Positions 11,382 through 53,409 are shown, counted from the first letter of the stretch. The stretch is 64,000 nucleotides of DNA from an uncultured Anaerolineales bacterium (GCA_964453155.1 CAYVQU010000007.1:3036-67035); one strand, 5' to 3'. Made by a program: numbers and translations. Notes: generated from the sequence alone by a model not told the origin.

Positions 11382-11401
11382 TCCAGATTATGTGCTTGTA
11401 A

Positions 11402-25700: not shown

Positions 25701-25873
25701 TCGAGCCATTTTTTACAACGCGGCCCCCCGGAAAAGGCGCCGGTTTAGGTTTAGCAGTCAGCTATGGCATAATACAGGATCATGGTGGTATGATCGCAGT
25801 CGAGAGTACCCCAAATCATGGGAGCGAATTCACAATTTGGCTGCCGGTGAAATCCAATCGGATGATGATTTAA
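22778..25873 (+). CDS. Sensor histidine kinase with about four GAF domains (GAFx4-HisKA-HATPase)
   Basis: The recurrent GAF C-terminal pattern occurs four times (...[39 protein letters not shown]; ...[34 protein letters not shown]). Then the H-box [13 protein letters not shown], and N/G boxes [11 protein letters not shown] and DTGEGI...FEPFFTT...GAGLGLAVS. Confidence 0.85.
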
Positions 25874-27447: not shown

Positions 27448-27449
27448 AA

Positions 27450-28235
27450 ATGACAGCAAAGATTCTCGTTGTTGATGATGAAAAAATTGCCCGAGTGACA
27501 TTGGCTGAGATTTTGCGGATGGAGGGCTATTCGGTTTCAGAAGCCGGTGATGGGCCGGAAGCGTTAGCCGCGGTTAAAGATAATAGCTTTGATTTAGTTT
27601 TACTCGATCTCAAAATGCCTGGTATGGATGGTATTGAGGTCATGCAAAAATTAGCTGAGATCACCCCAGATACGCTGGTTATCATGTTAACCGCCCACGG
27701 TTCAATGGAGTCGGCTATTGAAGCGCTCCGGCAGGGAGCCCATGATTATCTTATCAAACCGTCTTCGCCGCAAGAGATCTTGAGTAGCGTCGCGGCCGGC
27801 CTGGGCCGCCGGGCAGAGAACCAGCATCGCCGAATTCTTTTAGACCAATTAGATACCTCTTTGCAGCAACTACGGGATGTCGAAGGAATTTCCCAATCGG
27901 CCGCAACTGGGCGGCGGATTTTGACTTTTCCTGGTGGCATAATGGTGGACTTAGCTCGACGGGAAATTTGGCGAGGGAATGAAAAAATTAACCTGACCCC
28001 CACGGAGGGGAAACTGTTTCAAGTCCTGATTGAAAATCAGGGGCGGGTGATGACGCACCGCGAGCTGGTTTTTTTGGTGCAGGGCTATGAAATCACCGAT
28101 TGGGAAGCTCCTGAAGTTTTGCGTCCCCTGGTAAGCCGTCTACGTCGAAAATTGGCCACATTCCCTGGTGGGGATACCTGGATAGCCAATGTGCGCGGCA
28201 CTGGTTACGTTTTCGAAGTCCCCAAAGAAGAATGA
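27450..28235 (+). CDS. OmpR-family response regulator (REC + winged-helix DNA-binding domain)
   Basis: KILVVDDE, LVLLDLKMPGMDG, LTAHGS..A..GAHDYLIKP. The C-terminus LTPTEGKLFQVL...VSRLRRKL...IANVRGTGYVF is typical Trans_reg_C. Confidence 0.85.
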   Translation: MTAKILVVDDEKIARVTLAEILRMEGYSVSEAGDGPEALAAVKDNSFDLVLLDLKMPGMDGIEVMQKLAEITPDTLVIMLTAHGSMESAIEALRQGAHDYLIKPSSPQEILSSVAAGLGRRAENQHRRILLDQLDTSLQQLRDVEGISQSAATGRRILTFPGGIMVDLARREIWRGNEKINLTPTEGKLFQVLIENQGRVMTHRELVFLVQGYEITDWEAPEVLRPLVSRLRRKLATFPGGDTWIANVRGTGYVFEVPKEE

Positions 28236-28271: not shown

Positions 28272-29219
28272 TTAATCTCTTGGCTGCCAGGGGAGGTCGC
28301 TGGGAATTGTGGGGTGACTGAGCCAACTTAACCAGCCGCCGGGGTTGCTTTTTACCGGGCGAGTTTTTTCCATCCCCACCAGGATCATCGTGATACTCAA
28401 TAGGCCGGCCCCAATCCATTGGGTCAAGGTCAGGCGTTCTCCTAACCATATTTGGGACATTGCCATGGCAACCAACAATTCACTCAATCCTAAAAATGCA
28501 GTTTGCATTCCCCCGATATTTTTGACACCCATAAATAATGTCAGCCGAGATAAGAAGGTAACTATGGTTAAACCCAACAACGGCCACCACCCTTCTATCG
28601 AAGTAAACAACCCGGTGGTATCTCCAAAAAACAGGACTGGAACCGTAATGGCACTCATGGCCAATAAGGTATAAAGTGTCACTGTGGGCGGGGGCATATC
28701 GAATAATACCCGTTGGTTGATCGGCAGATGTAAGGCATACAGCGCCGACCCAATCAGCATCTGAATCACCCCCACAATATCGATGGATTGATCACTCGTT
28801 TGAACCAATAAAACCACCGCCGGAAGAGCTAATCCAATTCGCAGAATTGTTAACCGACTAGGGGGTTGGCCATCTAAAAATAACCACAAAACCAAAAACA
28901 AGGGATACAACGAATACAGTAATTGGCCGACTCCGGCTCCAATGCGGCCTAATGCGCTGTAATAAAACAAAGACCCGAGTCCATTGATCCAACCTGCCAA
29001 AAGGCAGCCTAATAGTCCTGCCGGGTAGATAAATAAAAATTGCCGCTTAAATATACTGATGATGATCAAAAGCAAGGTGGCGGCCAATAATGTCCGAATG
29101 GCGACGACTGCCAGGGGAGGCATCCCAAACATCATAGCTCGTTTCCCAAAAACAGGTGCCATCCCTAAAAATAACGCGGATGACAGTGCGGCGGAGATCC
29201 CTCGGAGGCGTGAATTCAT
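28272..29219 (-). CDS. DMT-superfamily (EamA-like) transporter
   Basis: 315 aa with 10 hydrophobic spans in a two-repeat organisation (ALSSALFLGMAPVFGKRAM ... FLSRLTLFMGVKNIGGMQTAFLGLSELLV). Confidence 0.7.
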   Translation of the reverse strand: MNSRLRGISAALSSALFLGMAPVFGKRAMMFGMPPLAVVAIRTLLAATLLLIIISIFKRQFLFIYPAGLLGCLLAGWINGLGSLFYYSALGRIGAGVGQLLYSLYPLFLVLWLFLDGQPPSRLTILRIGLALPAVVLLVQTSDQSIDIVGVIQMLIGSALYALHLPINQRVLFDMPPPTVTLYTLLAMSAITVPVLFFGDTTGLFTSIEGWWPLLGLTIVTFLSRLTLFMGVKNIGGMQTAFLGLSELLVAMAMSQIWLGERLTLTQWIGAGLLSITMILVGMEKTRPVKSNPGGWLSWLSHPTIPSDLPWQPRD

Positions 29220-29413: not shown

Positions 29414-31108
29414 TTACTTCAACAGCGTATCCACTTCTTCTAGCAATTCATCATTTAAGAACTCCCCTTTTTGCATCAAAGCGTGAATCCGGCCTTTCAG
29501 ACGACCTTTTTCATCCTCGGTAAGCTCTTGGGCCGTAACCACAATCACGGATATTGATGCGGTCTGTTCATCAGCCTTTAATGCTTCGATAACGCCGAAG
29601 CCATCCATTTCGGGCATCATGAGGTCGAGAATCATCACATCGGGGAAGGCAGTTTGAGCTAATTCAACTGCTTCAATCCCATTTTCGGCTTCATACAAAG
29701 TGTACTCGCCCTGTGATTGCAGGATTCGGCGGATCAAACGACGCGCATCAGGGTTATCATCTACGATGGCTACGCTGGAATAGCGGTCGGGCGTGATCCG
29801 ACTTAAGGCCGATAGCAGCCCCTCTTCGGGTTTTTCTTCCATCGTTTTGGATGAAATGATCATATTCTTGGCCCAACCCTCCCCTAAGATCATTTTCTCA
29901 ACTGGTAGGGTATGCCCCGTTAAATTTACCACAATTACATCATCGGGTTTGACCTGCCCATTACGAACCAGCTTGATTAGACCAGCAAAAGCAACCGCCG
30001 AAGCGGGTTCCATGGAAAGACCTTCCATTTTGGCTAGAACATGGATCGCCCGAAATGCAGCTTCATCCGATACGCTCTCAAAAGTGCCTCCCCCGCCTTT
30101 TAGCATCCGGTCTCGCAAAACAGTGTACGTCCGACCTGGATCGCCGGTTGCGAGAGTAGCAATATTGGTACGCGGAGATTGGACCGGAACTGCCTCTGCA
30201 AGATCATTCTTCCAGGCATGAACCATTGGCTCACAGCCCTCTGATTGAATGGCTGCCACGGCCGGAATTCGGTCAGAGATACCCATCGCTTGGAGTTCTT
30301 CAAACCCCTTGAGTACGCCTACGGGGCCCATCCCGCCGCTGACGGCCTGGATGTAGAGGTCAGGTACTCGCCAGGGGGGGGCATTTTCTCCCTCGGGCGG
30401 TCCGAGGGCTTGGGTGATTTGTTCACTGATTTCAAACGCAATGGTTTTCATGGCTTCTAAGGCCGGAATTGAGCGGACGCCCCGATCTAGATAAGAACCT
30501 TTTTGGCGTTGATTGGCGTATTCCACCGCGACTTTTTTGGCATGATCATACGAGGCGGTAACTTTGATTACCTGGGTCCCATAAATTGCGACTTCGCGCA
30601 TTTTTTCTGCGGGTACTAGGCTGGTCAGAAATGCCCATAATTTGATTCCAGCTCGAGATGTATACGCCGAATATGAAATCGCAACATTCCCCGTCGAGGC
30701 TAATACGGTCTCTGTGACTCCAGCCTCTTTCAAAGATGTGACAGTAATTGCTGCTTGCCGATCTTTGAATGAGCCAGTTGGATTTTGACGTTCATCTTTG
30801 ATATACAGGTTTTTCAACCCCAGCATCATCCCTAGATTGGTTGCTTTTATGAGAGGTGTACCGCCCTCAAACATACTAATTGGGGGGTGGGGACCGGTGA
30901 CGGGCAGTAATTCAAAAAAACGCCAGATATCAAATGGGCGGGAGGGAATACGTTCTAGAATCGATTTACCAATTTCTTCGTAATTGTAACGAGCTTCGCG
31001 CCACCCACTGCCACACTGGGTACAGGTGGTTACTTTGGGCGTATATGGATCTTGATTGCCACAATCTAAACATTCGGCAACTAAATGTGAATACAAAATG
31101 GCCTCCAA
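29414..31108 (-). CDS. Threonine-synthase-like PLP-dependent enzyme with N-terminal Cys4 zinc ribbon and C-terminal receiver (REC) domain
   Basis: CLDCG...CTQCG ribbon. PLP-lysine motif NPTGSFKDRQAAI. ASTGNVAISYSAY and AVSGGMGPVG (phosphate-binding loop). The last 120 aa, SVAIVDDNPDARRL..VMILDLMMPEMDG..VIVVTAQ..., form a canonical receiver. TTG start at 31108; a TTG 12 nt downstream preceded by GGAGG is equally possible. Confidence 0.8.
   Translation of the reverse strand: MEAILYSHLVAECLDCGNQDPYTPKVTTCTQCGSGWREARYNYEEIGKSILERIPSRPFDIWRFFELLPVTGPHPPISMFEGGTPLIKATNLGMMLGLKNLYIKDERQNPTGSFKDRQAAITVTSLKEAGVTETVLASTGNVAISYSAYTSRAGIKLWAFLTSLVPAEKMREVAIYGTQVIKVTASYDHAKKVAVEYANQRQKGSYLDRGVRSIPALEAMKTIAFEISEQITQALGPPEGENAPPWRVPDLYIQAVSGGMGPVGVLKGFEELQAMGISDRIPAVAAIQSEGCEPMVHAWKNDLAEAVPVQSPRTNIATLATGDPGRTYTVLRDRMLKGGGGTFESVSDEAAFRAIHVLAKMEGLSMEPASAVAFAGLIKLVRNGQVKPDDVIVVNLTGHTLPVEKMILGEGWAKNMIISSKTMEEKPEEGLLSALSRITPDRYSSVAIVDDNPDARRLIRRILQSQGEYTLYEAENGIEAVELAQTAFPDVMILDLMMPEMDGFGVIEALKADEQTASISVIVVTAQELTEDEKGRLKGRIHALMQKGEFLNDELLEEVDTLLK
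29417..29776 (-). other. Receiver (REC) domain portion of the threonine-synthase-like fusion
   Basis: DD pair (IVDDNPD), phospho-acceptor context ILDLMMPEMDG, T (VVTAQ) and K (LMQKG) positions are all present. Confidence 0.8.
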
Positions 31109-31240: not shown

Positions 31241-34200
31241 TTATTGGTATTCCTTGATCCGATTCAAAGATGCAACGAAATCATCGCCCAAAATTGGTTT
31301 CACCAAATAATCGGTGGCTCCGAGATCAAAACCCTTATCGATGTCCTCTAGAATGCTGCAGATGATCACCGGGATATTTCGGGTTTGCGGGTCAGCTTGA
31401 AGCTCTTCCAGTAGTTGCCAACCATCATGATCTGGGAGCATAATGTCGAGGGTGATTGCAAAGGGCTGAATTTGACGAGCGAACTCCATCGTTTTGCTTG
31501 GATCGGTAAGGGGTACGATATCGTACTCAGAACCACTCAAATACCGTTCGTAGAGATGAATGACCTGCATATCGTCGTCGATAGCCAGCACAGTGTTGCC
31601 GCCATCGACATCGGGAGGCAGAAGGGCTCGATCATCCAAGGGGAGCGTGAAGAAGAAATCACTCCCTTTGCCTTCTTCACTCACTAAACCAATTTCACCG
31701 CCATGTAATTCAACCAATAGGCTCGTAATAGAGAGACCCAACCCAGTCCCACCAGTTGCCCGGGTGGGTGAACCATCAACCTGAACGAATGGTTCGAAGA
31801 GTTTATCTTGATCTGCCGCCCCGATACCCAGCCCGGTATCTTTCACACTTATGTAAAGTTCGGGCAGACCACTTTCATTGGTTTGCTGCCGGGCTGTCAT
31901 TGTGATGCTGCCTTCGTCCGTAAATTTGGCGGCATTTGAAATCAGGTTGAGTAATATCTGACGAACTCTGGTTGAGTCAGCATTGACTATGGGTAGGTCC
32001 TCCTCGATAGCCGCTATGAGTTCGACGGGTTTATCCTTGATCAAGCCGCGCGCCGTAGACATTACGCTATTGATAATATCGGTAACGATTACATCTTCGA
32101 AGGCCAATTCCATCTTCCCGGCATCGATCTTGGAGATATCCAAAATGTCGTTAATCATTTTGAGCAGGTGCTGGCCAGCGTTATAAATCGCTCCCAGGTC
32201 TTGCTGCTGGAGGTCCGTCACTGGGCCGTCGATGCCTTTCATGATCACGCGCGAGAACCCAATGATGGAGTTCAGCGGAGTCCGCAGCTCATGGGACATG
32301 TTCGCCAGGAACTGGGATTTGAGTTGATCGAGCTCACGCAACTGCTCTGCGGTTTCAAATTGTTCCTCGTAAAGTCGGGCATTTTCGAGTGAGATGGCGG
32401 CTTGATTAGCCAGGGTCATCAACAGATTGATTTCATCGTCTGAAAATGAATATTCATTGTGCCTGGTTTCGATTTCGATAACACCGATGGTTTGACCTTT
32501 GACTGCTAACGGCAAAACCACCATCGTACCCACCTTATTCTCTGTCATGTAGGCAATTTCGGCCGGGTCTGCATCCTCGTCACCGATGTTCACCACCAAA
32601 ACTTCCTGTGTTTCTAATACTTTAGCTGTTGCTGGATATTCTGATAACGCAAAGTTCCAAATGCTAGGGTCATCATCCAGTCCTTGATGACCTTCAGTAA
32701 GGCCTAAACTGGAAATTGTAATCATCGAGTTTGGATCGATGGAATCTAGTAAGGCGATTGAACAACTCGCTTCATCCGGAATTAGATTAGCAATTTGCAG
32801 AGAGATAACATTCGCTACCTCCCGGGTTTCCAAAGGTGCCCTGGAGAGGTTCTGACTGGCATCGGATAGAGTGGTTAAGTCCTGAACGCGTCGTTCGGTT
32901 TCCGCAATCGCCTCCTGAACGGCTTGATAGGCCCGGGCATTGGCGATTGCGACCGAAATCTGATCAGCCAGGGTTTGGAGCACGGTAATATCATCATCTT
33001 GGAAAGTATCGATTTCAGTAGCTTGAACATCCAAAGCCCCAATAACGCGATTACCAATTTTTAGCGGGATCGCTAATTCGGCCGCAGTATCTGGTAAGAG
33101 TGGATGAGGTTGGTGGGTTTTATCCTGACTGACATCGTTAATGACCAGGTATTCGCCACTGGCTGTCACTGCCCCGATTATTGATTTAGACCCCACAGCT
33201 AGGCCATGGCCGGTTTCCATCATTTGTACCCCGGCTTCTCCGGTAGCTGCTTGGATCACTGCATTTTGACCAGTCTCATCCAGTAAGAAAATTGATGAGT
33301 GGTAAAAATCAAACCGGTCTCTGACGGAATTTACACTACGGATAAGGAGTTCTTCCTGTGAAAGGGTGGCAGATGTATCCCGGGCAATTTCGGCTGCAGT
33401 TTCCAATTGACCGGCTTTGCGGATACTGTCTTCCAATGACCGGATGTTTTGGATTGCCACTGCTGCCTGTCCGACCAGACTCATCATTTGGCGAATGTCG
33501 TTTTCGGCGAAATCTTGTTTTATCTCGTAAATTGCGATGATATGACCAAACCATTGCCCACCGGCAACCAGAGGGGCAAAGACCAGGCTATCGGCCTGGT
33601 AATGGTCCACATAGACCTGACGTCCAACCTCGTCTAATCTTGGATCATTGGCAATATCGGTGATAATGACTGCCTCGCCGGGGTTGAGTAAGTCTTCGGC
33701 CGTTGACCAAGCACTGAGCGGGTATCTTTGGTTTTTTTCCCGAGGACCTTCGGTTAATTTATTCCAGCGCGCAATCGGTATTAGCCATTCCGGTTGGGTA
33801 TCTGTATCCCAGACTTGATCAAATAGACTGACTGAAACACTTACCACCCCTTCTCCTAATATGGAATGATTCCGTAAAACGGAAAGGATTTCAGCATAAG
33901 ACTGCACCGTATTCAACTCAGAACTAGCCTGATAAAGGGCTGCCATTTCGTTTAGGGCCGTTTCAACTTGATCAAATAGCCGAGAGTTCTGAATTGCGAT
34001 GGCGGCCTGATTGGCAAGAGTCGTAGCCATGCGGATGTCTTCGTTAGCAAATGTTCCCTTAGGGGTTTGGCGATTCAAAGAGATAACCCCAATTACTCCC
34101 TCTGGCCCTACCATGGGGACGGTTGCGTTAGCTGCGATGCCGGCGGCCTTAAAATTCTCGCGGGCGTGTTCTTGCAACCGGGGATCATCGGCGAAGATGT

Positions 34201-37200
34201 TCGACGGTTGACGGGTACGAATAACTTGCTGTGTCAGAGGATAGCTTTCAAGCGGGATGCTCTCACCGATCGTTGACTCACCGGCAGTAAGTTCGGGGTA
34301 TGAACCCGACCGGATCATGTTTTCGCCTTGGAGCATGAACAAACTGACCGAGTCAGCTTCAGCAGCTTGGGCCACACTATTGATGAGGGTTTTGCTGACA
34401 TCTTCAAAACTCAGCGATTCACTCAATTCAGAGGTTGTCGATTGAATGATTTGCAGGTCTTCGAGTTGTTGCTGGGTTTGGGAGAATAAGCGGGAGTTCT
34501 CGATGGCGGAAGCTGCTTGACCGATAATTGTTTCAGCCAATCGTATCTCTTCTTCAGTGAATCGGCGACCAGCCTCGAGAATATCGAGGCCCACGGTGCC
34601 GATCACGCGACCAGCACTGATCAATGGCATTATTGCCAGGGACACAACTCCATGAGATTTCATCACTTCATGGATCGGTGCCGTGATGGGATCATTTTGG
34701 GCGTCATCGACAACCAGGGATTGCCCAGTTTCAATTACTTTTTGCGAAGATAGATTGCCTTCCACGGGTAGCTCAACGCCTACCGCTGAGGGGCGTTCTG
34801 GATTGGGTGAATATGCCGCGATAATTGTGAAAGTGGTCCGGGCGTTATTAAGCAAGGCAATGCCCGTTTGAATATTCAAGGCCCGGCCTAATTCCGAAGC
34901 CACAATATCCAAACTTACTGACAGGTCCAAAGAACTGGCCACTTGTGAAACGATGTTGTTAATCAAGGCTAATTCTTCACTGCGTTGTTGGGTCTGGTCG
35001 AAGAACTCGACGTTCTGCAGCGAGATCGCAGTTTGACTGGCGATAGAGGCCAGAAGATCCCTTTGACGGGTGTCATAAAGGCGGGGCGTAGTAACACTTT
35101 GAACCGTAATAACGCCAACAACCTTTTCACCAACCAACATAGGAACCCCCAACCAACAGAGTGGCGGTCCACTGTCGCCCAGCGGTACAAATTCAGCCCC
35201 CAAATTTTCCATGTGGGTAAGGACATCATCTTCGAGCAATAAGGCTTCACCATTCTTGAGAATATATCCGGTTAAGCCCTTTCCTGCTGGTTGGGTAAAA
35301 GTTTCGGCGGGTTCACCGTTAAAAACGTTGAACTCGACAGAAATTTCGGTCTGTTCATCATCAAAAGTTGCAATGAAAAAATTAGTTGTATCGAGTAATT
35401 GGGAGGTGTACCGATAGACAGTTTCAAAAACTTGTTCCCGTTCCAAAATTGTGGTCAATTCCCGTCCCATATCATTGAGAATTGAAAGATCATCGGTTTG
35501 TTTTTGAGTCGCCTGGAATAAACGGGCGGTCTGGATCGCGATCGCCGATTGGCGGGCAATTGAGATTAATAAATCTTGATGATGTTCGTTGAAAACATGG
35601 GGCGTATCCGCATTTTGAGTGGCGATGACACCCAAAACATCATCACCAATAATCAAAGGTACCCCCAACCAAGATTGAGCTGGGGCACCGATAATAATTT
35701 TTTCAAGACCTAATTCTTTGATAACCTCTTCAATATTTTCTGAGATGAGCAGTGGTTTTTTCGTATCGATTACGTGTTGGGTTAATCCCCGCCGTTTTTT
35801 CATGGTGGGGATATTGGATAATTCACCTTGTTCATAAACTAAGGGGAAGGAGACAGTATCATTTCGTTGGTTATAAAGCGAAATAAAGAAATAAGTCGTA
35901 TCCATCAACCGAGATGAGTACTCGTGGATGGTGCCCATGATTTCATCCAAATCGAACAGTGTGCTGAGCACGCGACTCATCTCATTGAGAACGGCCAATT
36001 CTGCAGCCTGATCTTGGGTTTGCTCAAAGAGGTTGGCATTTTCAATTGCGACCCCAATTTGCTGACCAACTGCCGAAAGCAGCGAGATATCGTTGCTTTC
36101 GGGCGACAATTTCTGGGTTGAAAATGTACACAACGTCCCTAGAATCTCCCCTTTGGCTTCGAGCGGTACCCCCTGATAGGATTGATACCCTAAGTTTATG
36201 GGGCCAGAGACTTCTATATCTGTAATTTTTGACAGATCATCGAAGTAAATCGGTTCTTTCCCCAGGTAAACCATTTCACATAAAGAACCTTCAAGTCCGT
36301 TTTCTTGAATACTCAATAACATCGCTTCCGGTAATTCATGTGCCAGGAGATCAAGTTTTCCGGTATATGCATTTGCGATTGTAATGAGCCCGATTTCTGA
36401 ATCGATCGTATTGAGTACCAGGTCCAATACTTCCTTTAGGGTCGTTTGTAATTCGAGAGAACTACTCGCCACATTAGTGATGCTCAATAGTGATTCGGTT
36501 TCTGATAAAGCCTCTTGAACTTGGTCAAGAAGCCGGCGGTTTTCTAGGTTGGAACCTATAACGGCAACCAATTGTTGTAGTAGATTTTCATCGCGGGATC
36601 CATACGCATTGGGTTTCAGACTACCAATATTCAGAGTCCCCACAATTTGGGTACCAAAGGCGACCGGCGCGACCATGAACGATCTCACCGCGCCTAAGGC
36701 TTCTTGGTTCGTATCAGGAACAACAATTGTTCTGTTTTGTTGGACCACGCTTTCCAGGGTTGAATCGGCCAGTGGAACGATATCACCAATGACGGTTGTG
36801 CCGGTTTCCCCCCGGATTGCAACCACTTCAATGGCATCTTGAGTGGGCACCAACATCGCCAAGGTTATCCGATCGGCAGTGAAAATTTGCTCAGATTTTG
36901 TGGTAATAAAGTTGTACGCCTCAGGAAAACTTTCAGCCCGGCTAAGTTCTTCACTGAGGTCGTTCAAGAGGGCCAGCCGGCGCACCAATTCTTCTGTTTC
37001 AGAAAGTGCGGCCTGGGTTTGTGAAAACAGATTCGAGTTTTGAATGGCGATCGCACTTTGGCTGGCGATGGCCACTAATAATTCCAGGTCCTGATCTGAA
37101 AAATGATGTGAGGCTTTGTTTTGGACACAAATAATACCTAAAGCCCGGTCTCCAATTGCCAGGGGAACGCCCAACCAACTTTGGGACATTTCACCGACTA

Positions 37201-39859
37201 ACTTTACTTCAATACCATGCGCCTCCATCCAGTCCAGCAGGTTTTCTGTGATCAGGGTGGGTTGCCGCGAGCGCAGCACATATTCCGTCAGACCATCCCC
37301 CATTGGGCGAGTAGGTATTTGAATTTCTTGACTGTCTTCAACCGAAAATGGGAAAGAAAGTTCGTCGGTTTCCGCGTTGTATAGGGCGATAAATAAGGTT
37401 GAAGTATCAATCAGCCGAGACCCATACATATAAATATTTTGGATAATGGAATTGATATCCAAGTTTTGTGATAGGGTTCGGCTCATCTCATTGAGGACTT
37501 GTAACTCACTGGCGCGGGCCTGGGTTTGATCGAACAGGTTCGCGTTTTGCAGCGCATTTGCCACCTGATCTGCCATGGTTTGTAGGATGGCCACATCCTC
37601 GCCACTAAAAGCCTCTACTAATGAGCTTTGAATAGTCATTGCCCCAATCACCTGGCCACGGCTAATCAAGGGCAAGGCAATTTCTGTTTGAGTTTCCGGT
37701 AAAAGCGGGTTTACAAACCGGGTGGTTGAAGTCGTAATTTGCTCGGGAGTTTGCGGTTCGGCGCTGCGAATACATTCCCCAATCATTGAACCCCCACCAA
37801 TCTCTAATTGGTGACCGCGTTCAATTTGAATCCGCCCAGCCTCCCCAGTACCCGCGCGCAATACGGCCCAGCGACCGGGTTCCTGGGTTAGTTCGCCACT
37901 ATGATCAACAAGAAATAAACCAACATAATACAAGTCAAAGCGGTCTTGAATCAGGTTTACAGTTTGCTGAATGAGCGGGTTAGGTTCCAGGATTGAACTT
38001 GCAGCGCGGGATACTTCTGCGGCGGTTTGCAACTGAACACTGCGGCGTTTAATTTGTTCGAACAAACGGGCATTTCGGATTGCAACCGAAGCCTGGGCTG
38101 CAATCGCACTAACCAGATCAACAGTTTCTTCGTTATAGGCATTGGGCACCGAATGATCTAAAAAGAGCAAACCGATCGTATCTTCACCGGCCAATAATGG
38201 GGCTCCAATCCAGGAACGAACATGTTCGATCCCTTCAACCTTCTCCCACAAAGGATGTTCATGGGTGTCTGGGATGATGAGCGGGGTTTTGGTATCAACA
38301 ATGGACTTGACCAAGGGATCTTCTGTTAGCGGTCGTAACAGCCGGGGCGAGGCGTCTAATTTTTCGTCCCCTATTTTGCTGAAGGCCGTCAGGAGACGAC
38401 GCTGGTCGCCTTCAACACTTTGCAGTGAAGCGGTTGAGAATTCAACCACATCTGTTAACTGAGCCAATAATCGGTTACCCACATCTTCCAGTTCGAGGGT
38501 GGCGCCAACCACCCGGGCAGTCTCACTCAACGTGTCCGCGATTTGCCGGCGGCGCTGCTCCTCCTGGAAAAGCTGTGAGTTGGCCAGGGCTGTAGCAACC
38601 TGGTTGGCCATCGCGTTCAATAACTCAACATCACCTTGAGTGAAATTGTTTTGATCCGGCCGATTAATCGTTGTTATTGTCCCGAAAACTTCATCGCGGT
38701 AGATTAGAGGAACGACGATCAAAGACCCCGCTTCGGTTTGCTCCCGGACTTTTCGAGCTTCGGCAGACTCCCGCAGATCAATTTTCTCTTTAAGAGAAAG
38801 TGCGGGTTCGCGTTCTCGCATACACCACCCCGTCAAACCGTCCATTAAATCGGAATATGTGTTTTCGTTGATTTCAATAGGGGGGGCATTACTCTCAAAG
38901 AAGTGGGTTAATATTTCTTTTTGGGTGTCAAAAACAGCAATTAAGGTGCGATTAGCCGGTAGAACCTTCGTAATTGAATCAATAACCGCCTGAAGTAATT
39001 CTTCGAGATTTTCGAATGCAATTGCAGCCTGGCCCACGTTGTATAGGGCCTCGGTTCGCGACAGGGATACTTGGGTTTCCTGAAACAATCGGGCATTCTC
39101 GAGGGCAAGAGCCAACTGGTCAGCCACTTGCTCTACCAGCCGTAGTTCATCCTGGTTCCATTTTCGATTGGGGTCTGGGTCGATGATCTCCATCAATCCT
39201 AATGATTGATCTTGGAGATCAACCGGTACGGCTAAGGTTGCGGGAGCTTCGGCCGTGGCCTCAATGGCGATACTCTCTCGTTTCAAAGCACTGGCCCGGC
39301 CGACATCTGTTAGGGGTTGGGTTACCGATAAAACTTGGTCGGCCTCGATGGCCACTCCTAATGCCTGGAAATCGGATGATAATGTTTGGGTGGATCGCTG
39401 ACCGGGGTGTTCACCTTCACCCTGACCGACCGGTGGTTGAAACTTGTTGTCGGTTGGCTCAGCTATTACCTGATTTAAACCTTGCCAGCCAATAACCTGA
39501 TTTTCGTCATCAAAGATCGGTTTAATATTGACTCGAACCAATAAATCGATCCCCGAAGGAACCTCGAAATTTATTTCAAGTTCATGAAACTGCGGGTCTT
39601 CCGCAATAACCATTTCCAGGGTCTTAGCCGATTCTGCTGTCACCAGATATGAGCAGATCGATTTTCCAATAAAAGTCTCTGGGGCATACCCTAAGATGCT
39701 TTCAACTTCAGGGCTGCACGCGACATATCGACCTGCCGGGTCACATTCCCAAATCCAACCCGAGATGTTCTCATCTTCGGAGGTGGTTTTGGAAGCCTTG
39801 TCCTCTAAATCTGAAAACAGATCGTTAAGCCGGTTGTGTAATTCTTTCTGTTTTGACAT
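31241..39859 (-). CDS. Giant hybrid sensor histidine kinase: PAS + ~13-14 GAF-type repeats + HisKA + HATPase + REC (2872 aa)
   Basis: N-terminal PAS-like segment ISGWIWECDPAGRYVACSPEVESILGYAPETFIGKS. I count 14 occurrences of the GAF terminal-helix pattern (ADQLALALENARLFQETQ, ANQVATALANSQLFQEEQ, AAQASVAIRNARLFEQIK, ... ANQAAISLENARLYEEQF). H-box FLANMSHELRTPLNSIIGF. N-box LLNLISNAAKFT. G-boxes DTGLGI and GGTGLGLSIT. Receiver VLAIDDD...TLDIMLPDHDG...DYLVKP. Confidence 0.9.
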   Translation of the reverse strand: MSKQKELHNRLNDLFSDLEDKASKTTSEDENISGWIWECDPAGRYVACSPEVESILGYAPETFIGKSICSYLVTAESAKTLEMVIAEDPQFHELEINFEVPSGIDLLVRVNIKPIFDDENQVIGWQGLNQVIAEPTDNKFQPPVGQGEGEHPGQRSTQTLSSDFQALGVAIEADQVLSVTQPLTDVGRASALKRESIAIEATAEAPATLAVPVDLQDQSLGLMEIIDPDPNRKWNQDELRLVEQVADQLALALENARLFQETQVSLSRTEALYNVGQAAIAFENLEELLQAVIDSITKVLPANRTLIAVFDTQKEILTHFFESNAPPIEINENTYSDLMDGLTGWCMREREPALSLKEKIDLRESAEARKVREQTEAGSLIVVPLIYRDEVFGTITTINRPDQNNFTQGDVELLNAMANQVATALANSQLFQEEQRRRQIADTLSETARVVGATLELEDVGNRLLAQLTDVVEFSTASLQSVEGDQRRLLTAFSKIGDEKLDASPRLLRPLTEDPLVKSIVDTKTPLIIPDTHEHPLWEKVEGIEHVRSWIGAPLLAGEDTIGLLFLDHSVPNAYNEETVDLVSAIAAQASVAIRNARLFEQIKRRSVQLQTAAEVSRAASSILEPNPLIQQTVNLIQDRFDLYYVGLFLVDHSGELTQEPGRWAVLRAGTGEAGRIQIERGHQLEIGGGSMIGECIRSAEPQTPEQITTSTTRFVNPLLPETQTEIALPLISRGQVIGAMTIQSSLVEAFSGEDVAILQTMADQVANALQNANLFDQTQARASELQVLNEMSRTLSQNLDINSIIQNIYMYGSRLIDTSTLFIALYNAETDELSFPFSVEDSQEIQIPTRPMGDGLTEYVLRSRQPTLITENLLDWMEAHGIEVKLVGEMSQSWLGVPLAIGDRALGIICVQNKASHHFSDQDLELLVAIASQSAIAIQNSNLFSQTQAALSETEELVRRLALLNDLSEELSRAESFPEAYNFITTKSEQIFTADRITLAMLVPTQDAIEVVAIRGETGTTVIGDIVPLADSTLESVVQQNRTIVVPDTNQEALGAVRSFMVAPVAFGTQIVGTLNIGSLKPNAYGSRDENLLQQLVAVIGSNLENRRLLDQVQEALSETESLLSITNVASSSLELQTTLKEVLDLVLNTIDSEIGLITIANAYTGKLDLLAHELPEAMLLSIQENGLEGSLCEMVYLGKEPIYFDDLSKITDIEVSGPINLGYQSYQGVPLEAKGEILGTLCTFSTQKLSPESNDISLLSAVGQQIGVAIENANLFEQTQDQAAELAVLNEMSRVLSTLFDLDEIMGTIHEYSSRLMDTTYFFISLYNQRNDTVSFPLVYEQGELSNIPTMKKRRGLTQHVIDTKKPLLISENIEEVIKELGLEKIIIGAPAQSWLGVPLIIGDDVLGVIATQNADTPHVFNEHHQDLLISIARQSAIAIQTARLFQATQKQTDDLSILNDMGRELTTILEREQVFETVYRYTSQLLDTTNFFIATFDDEQTEISVEFNVFNGEPAETFTQPAGKGLTGYILKNGEALLLEDDVLTHMENLGAEFVPLGDSGPPLCWLGVPMLVGEKVVGVITVQSVTTPRLYDTRQRDLLASIASQTAISLQNVEFFDQTQQRSEELALINNIVSQVASSLDLSVSLDIVASELGRALNIQTGIALLNNARTTFTIIAAYSPNPERPSAVGVELPVEGNLSSQKVIETGQSLVVDDAQNDPITAPIHEVMKSHGVVSLAIMPLISAGRVIGTVGLDILEAGRRFTEEEIRLAETIIGQAASAIENSRLFSQTQQQLEDLQIIQSTTSELSESLSFEDVSKTLINSVAQAAEADSVSLFMLQGENMIRSGSYPELTAGESTIGESIPLESYPLTQQVIRTRQPSNIFADDPRLQEHARENFKAAGIAANATVPMVGPEGVIGVISLNRQTPKGTFANEDIRMATTLANQAAIAIQNSRLFDQVETALNEMAALYQASSELNTVQSYAEILSVLRNHSILGEGVVSVSVSLFDQVWDTDTQPEWLIPIARWNKLTEGPREKNQRYPLSAWSTAEDLLNPGEAVIITDIANDPRLDEVGRQVYVDHYQADSLVFAPLVAGGQWFGHIIAIYEIKQDFAENDIRQMMSLVGQAAVAIQNIRSLEDSIRKAGQLETAAEIARDTSATLSQEELLIRSVNSVRDRFDFYHSSIFLLDETGQNAVIQAATGEAGVQMMETGHGLAVGSKSIIGAVTASGEYLVINDVSQDKTHQPHPLLPDTAAELAIPLKIGNRVIGALDVQATEIDTFQDDDITVLQTLADQISVAIANARAYQAVQEAIAETERRVQDLTTLSDASQNLSRAPLETREVANVISLQIANLIPDEASCSIALLDSIDPNSMITISSLGLTEGHQGLDDDPSIWNFALSEYPATAKVLETQEVLVVNIGDEDADPAEIAYMTENKVGTMVVLPLAVKGQTIGVIEIETRHNEYSFSDDEINLLMTLANQAAISLENARLYEEQFETAEQLRELDQLKSQFLANMSHELRTPLNSIIGFSRVIMKGIDGPVTDLQQQDLGAIYNAGQHLLKMINDILDISKIDAGKMELAFEDVIVTDIINSVMSTARGLIKDKPVELIAAIEEDLPIVNADSTRVRQILLNLISNAAKFTDEGSITMTARQQTNESGLPELYISVKDTGLGIGAADQDKLFEPFVQVDGSPTRATGGTGLGLSITSLLVELHGGEIGLVSEEGKGSDFFFTLPLDDRALLPPDVDGGNTVLAIDDDMQVIHLYERYLSGSEYDIVPLTDPSKTMEFARQIQPFAITLDIMLPDHDGWQLLEELQADPQTRNIPVIICSILEDIDKGFDLGATDYLVKPILGDDFVASLNRIKEYQ
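31244..32362 (-). other. Kinase core (HisKA-HATPase, ~31595..32362) and receiver domain (~31244..31594) of the giant kinase
   Basis: Residue counting back from the C-terminus: the last 373 aa begin at QFETAEQLRELDQLKSQFLANMSHELRTPL, and the last ~117 aa form the REC domain. Confidence 0.75.
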
Positions 39860-40607
39860 ATTGTGTCAACTCCTGCGCTAGAGTGGTATATTGCTGCGCA
39901 CTCCGGCTGCTGGGGAGATAGTGGGTAATAGGTTGGCCAGCGATGGCACATTCACGCAATTTGCTGTCGGTTTGGATCATCGTATCGAAAACGGCCGCAT
40001 CGAAAGTTGTTTTGAGTTGTTGACTCAGTGTATTATGCGAACCAATGCGGATATCAAGCATTGTTATGAGAATCCGATATTTCAAACCTGGATTTTCAGA
40101 TTTTCGAATGGATTGGATCATGCTCATCATATTGCGCAGTGCATAGGCTGAGAAATATTCTGCCTGGGTTGGGATAATTAACAAATCTGCCGCGGTGATG
40201 GCATTCAGCGTAACAACCCCTAGGGATGGCGGGCAATCCAAGATGATCAAGTCATAATGGGAAATGGTTTCGAGCGCAGTTTTTAAGATTGATTTGTAAT
40301 CTTGTCGGATCGGTAAAAAGCGCTCGGTTAATCCCATTTCAGAATTTGAGGGGATCAAATCTAAACCAGGGATGGCGGTCTCACGAGAAACGCTGACCGG
40401 TTTTGCCGAGTAAAGCATCACATCCGCGATTGACCGCCGGACTTTATGGGGGGCAATCCCCATTGCCAAAGATAAATTGGCTTGCGGGTCTAAATCAACC
40501 AGCAAAACTTCGTATCCTTTCTCAACGAAAGCCCCGCCAATGGAAACCGCGGTAGTGGTTTTTGCCACTCCACCTTTTTCATTTGAAACTGCAATAACGT
40601 TCGTCAT
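39825..40607 (-). CDS. ParA/Soj/MinD-family P-loop ATPase (orphan; no ParB nearby)
   Basis: Deviant Walker A VSNEKGGVAKTTT, LLVDLDPQANLS, Walker B LIILDCPPSLG. 260 aa. Its 3' end overlaps the giant kinase start by 35 nt, and there is an 8-nt gap to the upstream gene. Confidence 0.85.
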   Translation of the reverse strand: MTNVIAVSNEKGGVAKTTTAVSIGGAFVEKGYEVLLVDLDPQANLSLAMGIAPHKVRRSIADVMLYSAKPVSVSRETAIPGLDLIPSNSEMGLTERFLPIRQDYKSILKTALETISHYDLIILDCPPSLGVVTLNAITAADLLIIPTQAEYFSAYALRNMMSMIQSIRKSENPGLKYRILITMLDIRIGSHNTLSQQLKTTFDAAVFDTMIQTDSKLRECAIAGQPITHYLPSSRSAQQYTTLAQELTQYVKTERITQPA

Positions 40608-40615: not shown

Positions 40616-43600
40616 TTAAGAATTTGATTCTTTCGATTGGACCACGACTTGGGCGCGCTGGGCTTGTAAGGCCTCCCGGAGTTCGCTAGCTGCAGTGTGC
40701 AGCATCGCCTGAGGATCAGTGGTTGCTCGAATTTTGGTTGTAATTTCAGTTACCAGGCGCTCGCGGGCGGCCCGCCGTTGGGTGGTATCGAGCAAGCGCA
40801 AGGTTTCGGCTGCCAGACCAAACTGCTCGCTGACAGCCTCAGCAATCGCAATATCATCGGGTGACCAAGAGTCTTTGTCGGGAGGTAAATTGAAGCCCAA
40901 AGCCCCAATGGGTTCATCGCGAAGTAGCACGGGGACGGCCAAGATTGTATTGGTGCCATTCTCGTCTGCTAAAACGATGGAACGCTTTTCTTGCATGGCG
41001 ACTTGTACTTCAGGTAGTAACTCATTTCCTAATGGAATGATATCGGCATCCGTACTTTGATATCCGGTTTTTGTCTGATTTTGTGTGAATTCAGACCAGG
41101 CCTGGGTCAAGTAACGCCGTTGCGTGCGTTCTAACTCAACCAGCGCAGTTTGGGTTTGTTCGAACAGACGAGTATTTTGAATCGCGCTGGCAATCTGGTT
41201 GGCCATCGTAGTCAGACTGGCAGCATCTTCGGGGGTGAATGCATGAGCTGCCGTGCTCTGAATAGTGAGGGCCCCAAATGTAGATCCTCGGCTGGTCAGC
41301 GGTAAGGCCATCTCTGAGCGGGTGTCTGGTAAGTGGGGGTTGCGTAAGTGTATCGGTGCTTGCTCCACTTCAAGCTGAACATCAGCTTGACCGCTCTCAA
41401 TACACCGACCGATCATGGATCCGCCACCGACCTCTAATTTCCAGTTTTGAGCCAACATTTGCTGCCCCGCCTCGCCGGTACCGGCCTGGAGGTCGGCCCA
41501 TTGCTGGCTCTCATCTACCAGGAATAAACCCACATAGTAGAGATTGAACCGATCGCGGATGACGTCCACAACACGAGGGAGCAAAACATCAACATCCAAG
41601 ATGGATGAGATTGCACCCGCAACTTCTGCCGCGGCACTTAATTGGGCCGACCGTCGTTCATTCAAAGCTAGGCTGGCTTGCATTTCATCAAACAATCGGG
41701 TATTCATCAATGCCGCGGAAATCTGGTTGGCAACTGAAGTTGCTAGACCCAGATCCATATTTGTAAAGTCAGGACTTTCGAGGCGTTTGATGAGCGTCAT
41801 TGTGCCGAAGGTTTCGCGCTGAGAATGTAGCGGCGCGATGATAATTGAACCAGCTCCGAAATCTTCCCGCCTTTTTTGTGCCTCCGGGCTTTCACGGGGA
41901 TCGGGGATCATTGTTTTTGGAGAGAAAATGGGTTCCAGATCGCGCAATGCCAACCCACTTAACCCCTCCCATAACTCTCCATAACTGGCTCGATCAAATT
42001 CTTCTGGGGCGTGGGGGCCAGCCATGCTCACCAACTCAACGGTTTCAGTAGCGGTATCGATGATGTTGATTACTACGATATCGGCCTGAGTCCCATCAGC
42101 AGTCCCTTCTACGGCTGCCTGGACCGCCTCAGCCACGCTGGTAACATCTCTTAGCCGACGGCTGGTAATATTGAGGATATTAGCGCGATTGAGGGCCGCA
42201 CTGGTGGTGACCGAGAGTTTTAGCCCATGAAGACTACTGCTGATATATTCGGCCAGATTGAGATATTGGCTGCTAATTTGGGGGCTATATTCAAAGATCA
42301 CATATCCGTGACTGGTTGTTTGGTGGTAAATAGGGCGGATGACCAATGAAACGGACTGCGTTTCTGGGAGAAGTTGATCAGGAATGATCTGACTTTTGGG
42401 GAGCAGCGTGTCGGTTAAAACCCCGGTGGAAGTAAAAAGGATGGGGATTTGATACTGGTTCGCGGCAATTTCGTTATCGGGTTGTAAAATCAACCCAAAA
42501 CCAGGGACGCCTAAAAATTGCAGCCCGTTGGCCATGATTTCGTAAAATGTAGGAAAATCCGCGGCAGTATTGAGGGCTTGTCCCCATTCACGAATATTGG
42601 TTGTGAATTGTTCGGTTGAATTTTGGCGCTGCTTCTGACCTCGAAGGGCGATATCACTTAACAGGGTTTGGGATTGAAATAGCCAGGTTTCGATTTGGGC
42701 ACTTAACGTCAACTCCTTGAAATCAGGCGGTAATAGGAATTGCCGCAGAAATCTCAGCATGTTTTGCCAGTGTTGAAGTTGGTCGGTTTGAGTTTGAAGT
42801 TGTGTGAATATCCGATTAACTGACCGGATAAATTTGGTTTCATCCTGGGTTTTGATGACGGCCGCAAAAGCAGCGATCAGGTCTGCCGTCGCCCAGGTTT
42901 CATTTGTTGGAATCTCTGCTTTCTCGTTGAGCATGGCGGAAAGCTTTTCTTTTTGTGGGGCTAAGGCGGTTACATCCAACCGGATTTCGGGTGGCGCGCC
43001 CTCGGTAGTTTGTGGCTGGATGGGCAAACATCCACAAGACTCCCTGGTCACCAGAGCGGTAGCCAGCCGGACGATTGGTTCAACTTCAATCCCGTTAATT
43101 TGTTTGAGCAGCAGTTCAACGGCCATCTGACCTTGTCGATGAATGGGTTGGTGGACAGTTGTGAGGGGCGGGGCTGAAAAATTCCCGTCTTCAATGTTAT
43201 CGAAGCCGACGACTGCGATGTCTTGGGGAACATGCAGATCAAAAGATGGCAATGCGGCCATGATCCCAATTGCCATCGTGTCATCGACACATACAATGGC
43301 ATCAACTTTGGCCTGACGATCTGTAAGCAAAGTTGTCACCGCCCCAGTAGGATCAGTATCAAAATCAGGGGGAACCACTAAGTTGGGATCGAATTCGATC
43401 TCATGATCGTTCAGGGCGGCAAGATAAGCCTGGTATCGTTCTTCGGCCTCCGAATTCCCGGCATATTGCTGAATGAAAGCAATATTTCGATAGCCATGAT
43501 CGTCAATTAAGTGAGATACAGCCTGATACATCCCCGAATGGTTATCAATTAATAAACTGGGAATATTTTCCAGCCCTAAAGCAATACTTACAGTGGGTAG

Positions 43601-43924
43601 GGAGGGAAATGTGGCCTGAATTGTTTGGCGAGCCTGTTCAGCAGTATCTGAAAATAACGTGCCGGAGGCAATAATTAACCCGGCAACTGTTTCGGCGGCT
43701 ATCAGTTCGTAAATTGCGTTTTCTTGGGCTGCAAACGGTTCATTTCCCTGAAATCCTCCCCCAATAAAAGTGACCAGGTTAACTTGAAGATTTTCAGCCG
43801 CCGCGACAACACCCTGCCATAAAGTTTGTTGATATCCCAGGGAAATATCATCAATGATGAACCCAATTGTAGGGTATGAATTCCGTTGGCTTTGAGCGGC
43901 GTTCTGTTGGGCTGCAGTGGCCAT
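40616..43924 (-). CDS. Cytoplasmic sensor protein: LacI-type periplasmic-binding-protein-fold ligand domain (no HTH) + GAF + GAF(A-type) + half-GAF + conserved tail; no output domain
   Basis: aa 17-296 (IGFIIDDISLGY...VAGLIIASG...GYRNIAFIQ...VDAIVCVDDTMAIGIMAAL...DIAVVGFDNIE...PPLTTVHQP) match the LacI/PurR sugar-binding core without the N-terminal HTH. A-type GAF RDRFNLYYVGLFLVD...LPDTRSEMALPL...ALTIQS. Tail TTQRRAARERLVTEITTKIRATTDPQAMLHTAASELREAL. Confidence 0.8.
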   Translation of the reverse strand: MATAAQQNAAQSQRNSYPTIGFIIDDISLGYQQTLWQGVVAAAENLQVNLVTFIGGGFQGNEPFAAQENAIYELIAAETVAGLIIASGTLFSDTAEQARQTIQATFPSLPTVSIALGLENIPSLLIDNHSGMYQAVSHLIDDHGYRNIAFIQQYAGNSEAEERYQAYLAALNDHEIEFDPNLVVPPDFDTDPTGAVTTLLTDRQAKVDAIVCVDDTMAIGIMAALPSFDLHVPQDIAVVGFDNIEDGNFSAPPLTTVHQPIHRQGQMAVELLLKQINGIEVEPIVRLATALVTRESCGCLPIQPQTTEGAPPEIRLDVTALAPQKEKLSAMLNEKAEIPTNETWATADLIAAFAAVIKTQDETKFIRSVNRIFTQLQTQTDQLQHWQNMLRFLRQFLLPPDFKELTLSAQIETWLFQSQTLLSDIALRGQKQRQNSTEQFTTNIREWGQALNTAADFPTFYEIMANGLQFLGVPGFGLILQPDNEIAANQYQIPILFTSTGVLTDTLLPKSQIIPDQLLPETQSVSLVIRPIYHQTTSHGYVIFEYSPQISSQYLNLAEYISSSLHGLKLSVTTSAALNRANILNITSRRLRDVTSVAEAVQAAVEGTADGTQADIVVINIIDTATETVELVSMAGPHAPEEFDRASYGELWEGLSGLALRDLEPIFSPKTMIPDPRESPEAQKRREDFGAGSIIIAPLHSQRETFGTMTLIKRLESPDFTNMDLGLATSVANQISAALMNTRLFDEMQASLALNERRSAQLSAAAEVAGAISSILDVDVLLPRVVDVIRDRFNLYYVGLFLVDESQQWADLQAGTGEAGQQMLAQNWKLEVGGGSMIGRCIESGQADVQLEVEQAPIHLRNPHLPDTRSEMALPLTSRGSTFGALTIQSTAAHAFTPEDAASLTTMANQIASAIQNTRLFEQTQTALVELERTQRRYLTQAWSEFTQNQTKTGYQSTDADIIPLGNELLPEVQVAMQEKRSIVLADENGTNTILAVPVLLRDEPIGALGFNLPPDKDSWSPDDIAIAEAVSEQFGLAAETLRLLDTTQRRAARERLVTEITTKIRATTDPQAMLHTAASELREALQAQRAQVVVQSKESNS
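43037..43876 (-). other. LacI-family-type ligand-binding (Peripla_BP) domain of the 1102-aa protein
   Basis: Coordinates from residue counting (aa 17-296). No helix-turn-helix precedes it; only 16 residues lie upstream. Confidence 0.65.
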
Positions 43925-48527: not shown

Positions 48528-48531
48528 GAAG

Positions 48532-53043: not shown

Positions 53044-53409
53044 TTATTCACTTTGAAACCATTTTATCGCTTCAGTTTCATCTTGAAATAAGCGTAAATC
53101 TTTTGTGCCGGTGGCCTTTATTACAAATCCAGCTAATACTCGAATATAACGACTGGCTCCGATAATCGCAGATTTACCAGATCGTGGGTCTACATCTTGG
53201 AATAGGGTTCCAAAAACTCTTCTTACGGAGGCTGAGGCTTTACCAACTTCACTGGCTTCTATGATGGTATGGAGGGGAGATTCTGCGGAGGCCTTTTCTA
53301 AATAAGTCCGGTATGCTTCGATATACGCCAGGACTTCGGCCTCATCAATATCACCCCGGAATACGATCCGGAGGATGCCGTCTTCACCAAGATCAAATGC
53401 AAAACTCAT
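53044..53409 (-). CDS. Small STAS/SpoIIAA-like protein (121 aa), tentative
   Basis: GILRIVFRGDIDEAEVLAYIEAY...KSAIIGASRYIRVLAGFVIKATGTKDLRLFQDETEAIKWF resembles the SpoIIAA-like/STAS (DUF-type) small-domain layout. No enzymatic motifs. Confidence 0.4.
   Translation of the reverse strand: MSFAFDLGEDGILRIVFRGDIDEAEVLAYIEAYRTYLEKASAESPLHTIIEASEVGKASASVRRVFGTLFQDVDPRSGKSAIIGASRYIRVLAGFVIKATGTKDLRLFQDETEAIKWFQSE

Follow-up and report, generated by a model that had tools for sequence, protein, structure and literature searches.

This study concerns a giant hybrid histidine kinase that is encoded at 31241-39859 of a 64,000-nucleotide stretch of DNA from an uncultured Anaerolineales bacterium, which we call the window and which forms part of a 68.5-kb JGI metagenome contig (features lie on the minus strand unless stated otherwise). 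We conclude that this protein is probably the common kinase of an undescribed pathway in which many sensors address one kinase. Two-component signaling is usually pictured as one sensor kinase with one regulator, and the chemotaxis array, in which many receptors without output act on a single kinase, is to our knowledge the main known exception. In the window, ten genes for output-less sensor proteins that contain GAF domains (hereafter the array; 40616-64000) lie upstream of the kinase gene. We favor, with a probability of roughly one half, a reading in which these predicted membrane sensors would signal in trans to the soluble giant kinase as the single kinase of the cluster.

Several observations favor this reading. 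A hydropathy scan detected no transmembrane segment in the kinase, whereas seven of the ten output-less array proteins are polytopic membrane proteins by the same kind of scan. Four GAF subtypes and a reduced GAF domain, which we call the mini-GAF, are common to the kinase and the array. Finally, the order of the genes is kept in 11 of 11 loci, down to a kinase identity of 27%. A preliminary description of this DNA had already singled out the kinase as the only protein of its gene block with a phosphotransfer output, and it is indeed the only HisKA/HATPase protein within 31-64 kb.

The same description had reported an open reading frame (ORF) of 2872 amino acids (aa) with a PAS domain, a GAF array, and a HisKA-HATPase-REC end, all of which was borne out by ORF and Pfam annotation. 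The reading frame opens with ATG, and the following Pfam domains all score above the curated cut-offs: a PAS domain (aa 30-134; 39458-39772; models PAS_9 and PAS), 14 GAF_2 stretches (E = 9e-186), a HisKA domain (aa 2514-2581; 70.3 bits at a cut-off of 26.9), a HATPase_c domain (aa 2628-2742; 91 bits), and a Response_reg receiver or REC domain (aa 2757-2864; 52 bits). Kinase core and receiver together occupy 31268-32320, with HisKA at 32117-32320, HATPase_c at 31634-31978, and REC at 31268-31591. In an alignment of 15 homologs, the H-box histidine H2523 within SHELRTPLN, the N, G1, F, and G2 boxes of ATP binding (N2638/N2642, DTGLGI, LFEPF, and GGTGLGLS), and the receiver residues D2762/D2763, D2805, and K2854 are intact and invariant. 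Every feature of a HisKA-type hybrid sensor kinase that a sequence can show is thus present, and the protein is also a member of the tandem-GAF family, by profile as well as by fold. It is soluble, it is the product of a genuine gene under constraint, and its sequence is that of a dimer-type hybrid histidine kinase with the predicted order basic peptide, PAS, mini-GAF, 13 GAFs, DHp, CA, and REC.

GAF units were called with a hidden Markov model (HMM) that was built iteratively from the window's own GAFs. This model found 14 units with the characteristic terminal helix (domain E-values from 1e-12 to 2e-26), ending at aa 255, 427, 596, 772, 941, 1107, 1274, 1443, 1616, 1788, 1958, 2138, 2307, and 2493. 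The count of 14 that had been made by eye is therefore right and lies far beyond chance; the signature on which it was based yields just two matches when applied literally as a regular expression and is better understood as a loose consensus. Units 2 to 14 are 166-186 aa long and constitute the 13 full tandem GAFs G02 to G14 (aa 256-2493; 32381-39094; Pfam and HMM), and the end of each unit ("...A.A[IL].N") continues unbroken into the first helix of the next ("[AS]RLF.QTQ").

The first unit, G01 (aa ~167-255; 39095-39361; HMM match at 172-255), had been labeled a half-GAF, a label that fold and alignment do not support. In an AlphaFold model of kinase aa 1-430 (predicted local distance difference test, pLDDT, of 76), a helix at 3-24 is followed by the PAS domain with strands at 34-133, a disordered linker at 135-166, a small domain of the order beta-beta-alpha-beta-beta-beta (168-227), a helix of 46 residues, and then the full GAF G02. 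The model of the C-terminal 346 aa of the array protein encoded at 48532 (pLDDT 87) comprises an A-type GAF (see below), a helix of 52 residues, and a small domain whose order of secondary-structure elements is identical to that of G01, followed by two helices of 47 and 16 residues and a disordered tail. In line with these models, kinase aa 128-315 can be aligned colinearly with nine array proteins at their C-terminal ends, and most homologous kinases likewise begin their series of units with G01. Sequence and structure models thus both indicate that G01 is a conserved reduced GAF and not a remnant, and that its homolog in the array proteins is their penultimate module.

The array genes, which we designate by their first coordinate, are located at 40616-43924, 43924-45654, 45657-48545, 48532-50244, 50355-51842, 53562-55334, 55834-58593, 58604-60856, 60943-62577, and 62574 to beyond the window end, and were recognized by Pfam and by their shared C-terminal module. 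As N-terminal sensors they encode a periplasmic-binding-protein-like domain, MASE11 (three genes), dCache-HAMP (two), or HAMP (three), and one protein is cytoplasmic; no enzymatic or DNA-binding output domain was found by Pfam in any of the ten. All ten proteins end in a stub of about 60 aa, which is preceded in nine of them by a short module, and this module in turn follows an A-type GAF in eight proteins and a C-type GAF in the product of gene 50355. The product of gene 62574 ends in a B-type GAF plus stub, without the short module; on the full contig (locus L088, 401-2884), it has 827 aa and consists of HAMP, A-GAF, GAF, B-GAF, and stub. An ORF of 466 aa with a TTG start that appears at 62574-63974 is this same gene cut by the end of the window.

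An alignment of the stub with a phytochrome-class GAF (PDB 6oap) covers the N-terminal helices of this GAF together with its first strand (residues 125-181; E = 2e-5), and each array protein therefore ends just inside a new GAF. A profile of the array C-terminal end found 410 database proteins at E ≤ 1e-5, and in each of the 120 best of these matches it is C-terminal, with a median distance of 10 residues to the stop, so that the truncation of the GAF is a trait of the family. We also considered that stub and short module together might form a circularly permuted GAF, which the monomer model does not support; there, the stub consists of two helices plus a disordered tail. An exhaustive profile search with the C-terminal module was unspecific (72,465 representatives, mostly partial GAF-GAF junctions of multi-GAF giants) and hence says nothing on the size of the array family; what it does show is that giants exist whose length reaches 3952 aa and in which about 20 such stretches are matched. 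Among these are two GAF-repeat proteins from public metagenomes, P0244 (3952 aa) and P0246 (3792 aa), with 20-21 stretches matching the GAF-junction profile.

To what extent kinase and array are related by common descent was assessed by all-versus-all BLASTP, by profiles of orthologous units, and by a bootstrapped neighbour-joining tree of 75 units, and the three approaches agree. Two A-type units are found in the kinase. G04 (aa 597-772; 37544-38071) is 49-50% identical to GAFs of genes 40616, 60943, and 45657, sits inside the array A-clade of the tree, and is the most conserved unit across orthologs (70-88% identity). G13 (aa 2139-2307; 32939-33445), the penultimate unit, is 54% identical to the GAF of gene 55834 and is kept in nearly all homologous kinases, with 85% identity to its counterpart in P0001, an ortholog that is 81% identical overall, and 52-70% to those in more distant homologs. 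G04 and G13 share only 39% identity with each other, and nearly every array protein contains an A-type counterpart. The B-type region (35012-37543) comprises G05 (37037-37543), G08 (35531-36037), and G09 (35012-35530), with G06 and G07 in between; G05 and G08 are 49% identical, G09 reaches 35-36%, and the second GAF of gene 62574 reaches 35%. The clade of kinase B-type units has a bootstrap value of 95%, which falls to 76% once the array unit is included. At the DNA level, all the similarity left in this region is a stretch of 70 nucleotides at 70%.

The C-type unit G12 (aa 1959-2138; 33446-33985) is modestly linked to gene 50355, whose GAF is 26% identical to it (profile score of 89 bits, with the next unit at 58; 76% bootstrap). 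A link of G12 to the first GAF of gene 62574 was not found by BLAST, and the bootstrap value is 32% when this GAF is added. A fourth type, D, is represented by G02 (aa 256-427; 38579-39094), whose counterpart is encoded by gene 40616 as its first GAF (35% identity over 169 aa; 132 against 68 bits for the next unit; 97% bootstrap). By comparison, identity over the full unit does not exceed 28% between any unit of the kinase and the GAFs of the unrelated kinases at 22778-25873 and 25837-27447. These sequence comparisons indicate that the GAF subtypes of kinase and array are related by common descent. The proposal of the preliminary description that types A, B, and C are shared with the array can therefore be sustained for A and for B (including gene 62574), moderately for C in gene 50355, and not for C in gene 62574, and it had missed type D. 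In the domain tree that it had suggested as a test, relatedness is specific, and by BLASTP the A-type GAFs of the kinase are 49-54% identical to those of the array as against 28% or less to those of the unrelated window kinases, so that this test does not refute shared ancestry.

Conservation of the neighborhood was studied in 11 loci, i.e., the window and the contigs of ten homologous kinases that share between 27 and 81% identity with the window kinase, which were obtained by exact-protein contig look-ups. (Scanning contigs with generic H-box peptides such as FLANMSHE or LRTPLNSII was unusable for synteny and mostly returned unrelated kinases of many phyla.) The order array, kinase, ThrC-like-REC, and EamA is kept in all 11 loci, and the gene cluster is thus conserved across Anaerolineae (Chloroflexota) over deep divergence. 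The preliminary description had missed this context, including the ParA-like ATPase treated below, as well as the mini-GAF and truncated GAF at the ends of the array proteins. The next gene downstream of the kinase at each locus, in the window at 29414-31108, encodes a threonine-synthase-like (ThrC-like) enzyme of the pyridoxal phosphate (PLP)-dependent type with a C-terminal CheY-like receiver (Pfam PALP and Response_reg). This protein matches the threonine synthase structure 2zsj of the PDB at 7e-41 and has the SFKDR lysine motif, an N-terminal CxxC...CxxC, and a complete set of receiver residues (DD/D/T/K); all NCBIfam ThrC models score below their cut-offs, e.g., 230 versus 303 bits. Its domain make-up and position make ThrC-like-REC a candidate cognate response regulator of an unusual enzymatic type, and we found no description of a fusion of a ThrC-like enzyme to a receiver in the literature searched. 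It is followed, again at the same position in all 11 loci, by an EamA transporter of the DMT family (28272-29219; Pfam; nine hydrophobic segments).

Beside the cluster, a convergent two-component module is found in nine of the 11 loci, with overlapping genes for a GAF histidine kinase (GAF-HK), a REC-(GAF)-HK, and an OmpR-type regulator; in the window, it occupies 22778-28235 on the plus strand (GAFx3-HK 22778-25873, REC-GAF-HK 25837-27447, OmpR-type 27450-28235). Recognized by Pfam and NCBIfam, it may either serve the cluster as an arm of transcriptional output or constitute a cascade of its own. Its OmpR-type gene, 3 kb away from the kinase, contradicts the earlier statement that no DNA-binding response regulator is encoded nearby, and the PALP-REC gene directly downstream of the kinase is a second nearby response regulator that had been overlooked.

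Between array and kinase, the window encodes a ParA/MinD-family ATPase of 260 aa (39825-40607; Pfam AAA_31, 8e-49) with a deviant Walker A motif that includes the signature lysine (EKGGVAKTT, aa 10-18). None of the NCBIfam models for named subfamilies reaches its cut-off for this protein (best ParA_partition, 107 versus 180 bits). The 3' end of the gene overlaps the start of the kinase gene by 35 nucleotides, and a ParA-like gene is present at this position in eight of the 11 loci, overlapping the kinase start by 8-47 nucleotides. The sequence that encodes this end of the kinase (39788-39859) specifies a basic peptide of 24 residues (MSKQKxLxNRLxDLFxDLE; predicted helix 3-24) in which M1, R10, L14, and F15 are invariant in the kinase alignment, and the first ~24 residues are better conserved than the adjoining PAS domain. 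A basic peptide ending in [RK][LI]xxLFx[DG][LI] starts all eight ParA-overlapped kinases, including those without PAS domain, whereas P0012, P0034, and P0035, the three kinases whose loci lack a ParA-like gene, start with MH.LL.RQL..FGS instead. This association (8/8 versus 0/3) has a nominal p of ~0.006, though the three ParA-less kinases form one subgroup. The pattern suggests that kinase aa 1-24 are a candidate docking peptide for the ParA-like ATPase.

The mechanism that we propose on this basis would begin with the output-less sensors, which would bring in extracytoplasmic and membrane inputs through their dCache, HAMP, MASE11, and periplasmic-binding-protein-like domains as well as through a separate FIST protein (see below). 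They would hand their state to the kinase by protein contact via the common A-type GAF, the mini-GAF, and the helical spine, while the 13 GAFs of the kinase would form a long integrating rod and could possibly be ligand sensors too. The ParA-like ATPase would bind the N-terminal peptide of the kinase and thereby position or partition the complex. The kinase would then phosphorylate the receiver of the ThrC-like protein and so control the synthesis of an amino-acid-like compound that EamA would export, with the OmpR module perhaps serving as a second, transcriptional output. One may go further and imagine a supramolecular, ParA-positioned receptor array built from GAFs, into which the sensors would assemble with the one kinase through their A-GAF, mini-GAF, and stub ends. 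The compound made by its phosphorylation-controlled ThrC-like output would derive from an amino acid, be exported, and possibly act as a signal between cells of filamentous Anaerolineae. This is a speculative and rather unlikely extension.

Several points weigh against signaling in trans as we propose it. Conserved gene order is evidence of a functional link, not of physical contact. The whole A clade has a bootstrap value of only ~50%, and for G03, G06, G07, G10, G11, and G14 no array counterpart was found, so that these units must serve another role. The kinases P0021 and P0039 have no G04-type unit, and their arrays nonetheless retain the corresponding A-type GAFs; a strict rule by which like GAFs pair with like is therefore contradicted. 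The correlation between ParA-like ATPase and N-terminal peptide may stem from a single evolutionary event. Furthermore, a hybrid kinase normally reaches a separate receiver through an Hpt protein, and, as had been noted before, none is encoded nearby: No Hpt domain is present in any gene call of the examined loci.

The main rival is an autonomous kinase that integrates cytoplasmic signals, with GAF pockets that sense up to 13 small molecules; the upstream sensors would be independent paralogs whose C-terminal stub acts on some other partner, and their clustering would reflect local expansion and co-regulation. This is possible, if less probable than not. GAFs are classic binders of small molecules, and the structural matches PDE2A, Lcd1, PtsP, and fRMsr are ligand-binding GAFs. 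Six GAF types are specific to the kinase, subtypes of kinase and array lack a strict correspondence, and number and order of the middle units vary by lineage (from 5 to 15 units), as would be the case for gain and loss of modular ligand sensors. However, an autonomous kinase would leave the array sensors without any output despite their large family and conserved C-terminal end, and it does not account for the array's mini-GAF module at the N-terminus of the kinase. In addition, a gene order that is kept in 11/11 loci to 27% identity, with overlapping or near-abutting genes, exceeds what one would expect of duplication debris.

It is improbable that most GAFs do not sense anything and merely build a rigid dimeric spacer or docking scaffold, with regulation left to the PAS domain or a few GAFs. 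Such a structural rod would agree with the uninterrupted helices between units (46-52 residues in the models), as in parallel tandem-GAF dimers such as 1mc0, with the very regular unit length of 166-186 aa, and with the ParA-like association, which suggests a large positioned assembly. Yet each unit type is separately conserved with positional orthologs (clades of 99-100% for G03, G07, G12, G13, and G14), which a spacer would not need, and a unit number that ranges from 5 to 15 among homologs means that the length need not be fixed.

That domains were shuffled or duplicated internally in recent times, by exchange with the neighboring array genes, as had been proposed for the B-type units in particular, is highly improbable. 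In its favor, G04 falls inside the array A-clade beside the A-GAF of gene 40616, the gene with the periplasmic-binding-protein-like domain (65% bootstrap), and G02 is closest to the first GAF of the same gene (97%). However, Tandem Repeats Finder detected no DNA-level repeats in the gene, the best direct repeat has 70 nucleotides at 70%, and G05 and G08 are only 49% identical as proteins. When units were typed in 60 homologous kinases, every unit turned out to be less similar to any paralog of its own genome than to its same-position counterpart in kinases of other species: paralogs within the kinase's genome share 39-54% identity, compared to 65-88% with the same-position units of P0001. Same-position identity averages 81% with P0001 and ranges from 44 to 80% across P0002-P0010, and the ortholog clades of G03, G07, G12, and G13 have bootstrap values of 100% and that of G14 of 99%. 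The duplications must therefore be old, and with no meaningful match in the self-repeat search at the DNA level and with positional orthologs in other species, the B-type units cannot be described as recent internal duplications. Homologs share the colinear core order 01-02-03-04-05-07-08-09-12-13-14, relative to whose 11-unit orthologs the window kinase has G06, G10, and G11 in addition. The relationships of G04 and G02 to the A-GAF and first GAF, respectively, of the protein encoded at 40616 nevertheless make an ancient exchange between the kinase gene and this adjacent gene plausible at the sequence level.

That the gene is an assembly chimera or a product of mis-joined repeats, to which repetitive multi-domain genes on metagenome contigs are prone in principle, can be practically dismissed because a 17.8-kb contig from a second sample contains it with 0 mismatches over 8619 nucleotides, no repetition exists at the DNA level that could mislead an assembler, and the ortholog P0001 (2871 aa, 81% identical) has 14 units in identical order with 65-88% identity each, just as the 11-unit orthologs keep the order.

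The kinase on its own is not exceptional. Among the 120 best homologs, the number of units ranges from 5 to 15, so that a kinase with 14 GAFs is large without standing out, and multi-GAF kinases are common in Anaerolineae metagenomes (5-15 units, with ~20 in some proteins). All named homolog matches come from metagenome-assembled genomes of Chloroflexi or Anaerolineae and are labeled only as "GAF domain-containing protein". The kinase itself therefore belongs to a large known family, and the new part is probably the conserved multi-sensor system. No prior description of the cluster was found in the literature searched, which is not proof of absence.

Several known systems share parts of this organization. 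Multi-GAF phytochrome and cyanobacteriochrome kinases (6oap) as well as PDE2A/PDE5 and CyaB2 (1mc0, 3lfv, and 1ykd) likewise have helix-joined tandem GAFs leading to a C-terminal effector; these tandem-GAF structures have two GAFs each, compared to 13-14 units here, and unlike the phytochrome-class kinases, the present kinase comes from Chloroflexota instead of cyanobacteria and is linked to separate receptors without output. It is not a bilin photoreceptor by the evidence of its cysteines: seven of the 14 units have no cysteine at all, those of the others do not occupy equivalent positions, and a CH motif is absent. Arrays of chemoreceptors, CheW, and CheA are positioned by the ParA-like ATPases ParC and PpfA. 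Like the cluster described here, they combine many output-less receptor paralogs (dCache, HAMP, 4HB), one kinase, and a ParA-like ATPase, but the common module is GAF-based here and the kinase of the HisKA type, so that the analogy is one of logic and not of homology. No MCPsignal, CheW, or CheA/Hpt domains were found in the proteins at 22-64 kb or in the gene calls of the related loci, and we therefore reject an identification as a chemosensory (MCP-CheW-CheA) system.

In the NosP-NahK and H-NOX-HnoK systems, an output-less sensor regulates a separately encoded kinase by direct binding. The arrangement in the window is similar and even includes a NosP-like FIST protein inside the array; it differs by about ten GAF-terminated sensors instead of one and by a FIST protein that scores 77 bits where 450 are needed. 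In the stressosome (RsbR paralogs, RsbS, and RsbT), several sensor paralogs likewise act on one kinase, and a small STAS/SpoIIAA-like gene is found here, too. However, the array sensors have no STAS domain, there is no RsbT-type kinase, and the sole STAS-like gene is an ORF of 121 aa. Finally, regulators of the CheB, PleD, and RpfG types also fuse a receiver to an enzyme to give a catalytic output; the enzyme here is instead a ThrC-like PLP enzyme, with its receiver at the C-terminus and an EamA transporter next to it.

Anaerolineae are abundant and poorly cultured bacteria of sediments, wastewater, and anammox communities. This group appears to have conserved a second many-receptors-one-kinase architecture, which is unrelated to the chemotaxis array and whose output would be metabolic and not transcriptional. 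If this is true, the integration of signals along a rod of tandem GAFs could be put to the test here, thousands of database entries labeled "GAF domain-containing protein" would gain a function, ParA-family ATPases would have a new class of cargo, and ThrC-like-REC would be a new type of enzymatic response regulator. Should the model fail, the kinase would be one more member of the large family of multi-GAF kinases.

Further features of the array concern the fold of its GAFs and two other genes within it. Foldseek searches with the array model matched tandem-GAF structures (PDE2A GAF-A/B, 1mc0, and Cph1 GAF-PHY), and searches with the array A-GAF matched the PtsP GAF (TM-score 0.82-0.85) and fRMsr, with the cAMP-binding Lcd1 GAF also among the structural matches. 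An fRMsr-like enzymatic activity of the A-type GAF, considered in view of weak matches in sequence and structure, is not supported, since G13 contains no cysteine. FIST proteins are a type of stand-alone sensor known to act on separate kinases. The one inside the array (51872-53014; Pfam FIST and FIST_C) matches the NCBIfam NosP model at 1.3e-21 with 77 bits, far below the cut-off of 450, so that we do not assign it to the NosP family and regard only FIST and FIST_C as confirmed. The STAS/SpoIIAA-like protein of 121 aa (53044-53409; Pfam PF11964, 27.2 bits at a cut-off of 25) is encoded 29 nucleotides upstream of the FIST gene, also inside the array, and its gene was called on the contig as well.

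The cytoplasmic array protein (gene 50355-51842) begins with MHRLLQRQLRRFFGSTEKIP at its N-terminus (51740-51842), and its motif, MH.LL.RQL..FGS, also starts the ParA-less kinases P0012, P0034, and P0035 as well as several others. In a relative without ParA-like gene (locus L085, 3279-9971), a protein of 2230 aa is encoded directly upstream of the kinase and comprises dCache, HAMP, GAF, the short module, and six further GAFs, which is the composition of an array-type receptor whose stub has been extended into full GAFs. At the other end of the window, a region of low G+C content (1416-14804, plus strand; 38-42% compared to ~48% elsewhere) encodes a flippase-like polysaccharide-synthesis protein, a methyltransferase, and several GT4 glycosyltransferases, and is likely a surface-polysaccharide cluster with no relation to the kinase cluster.

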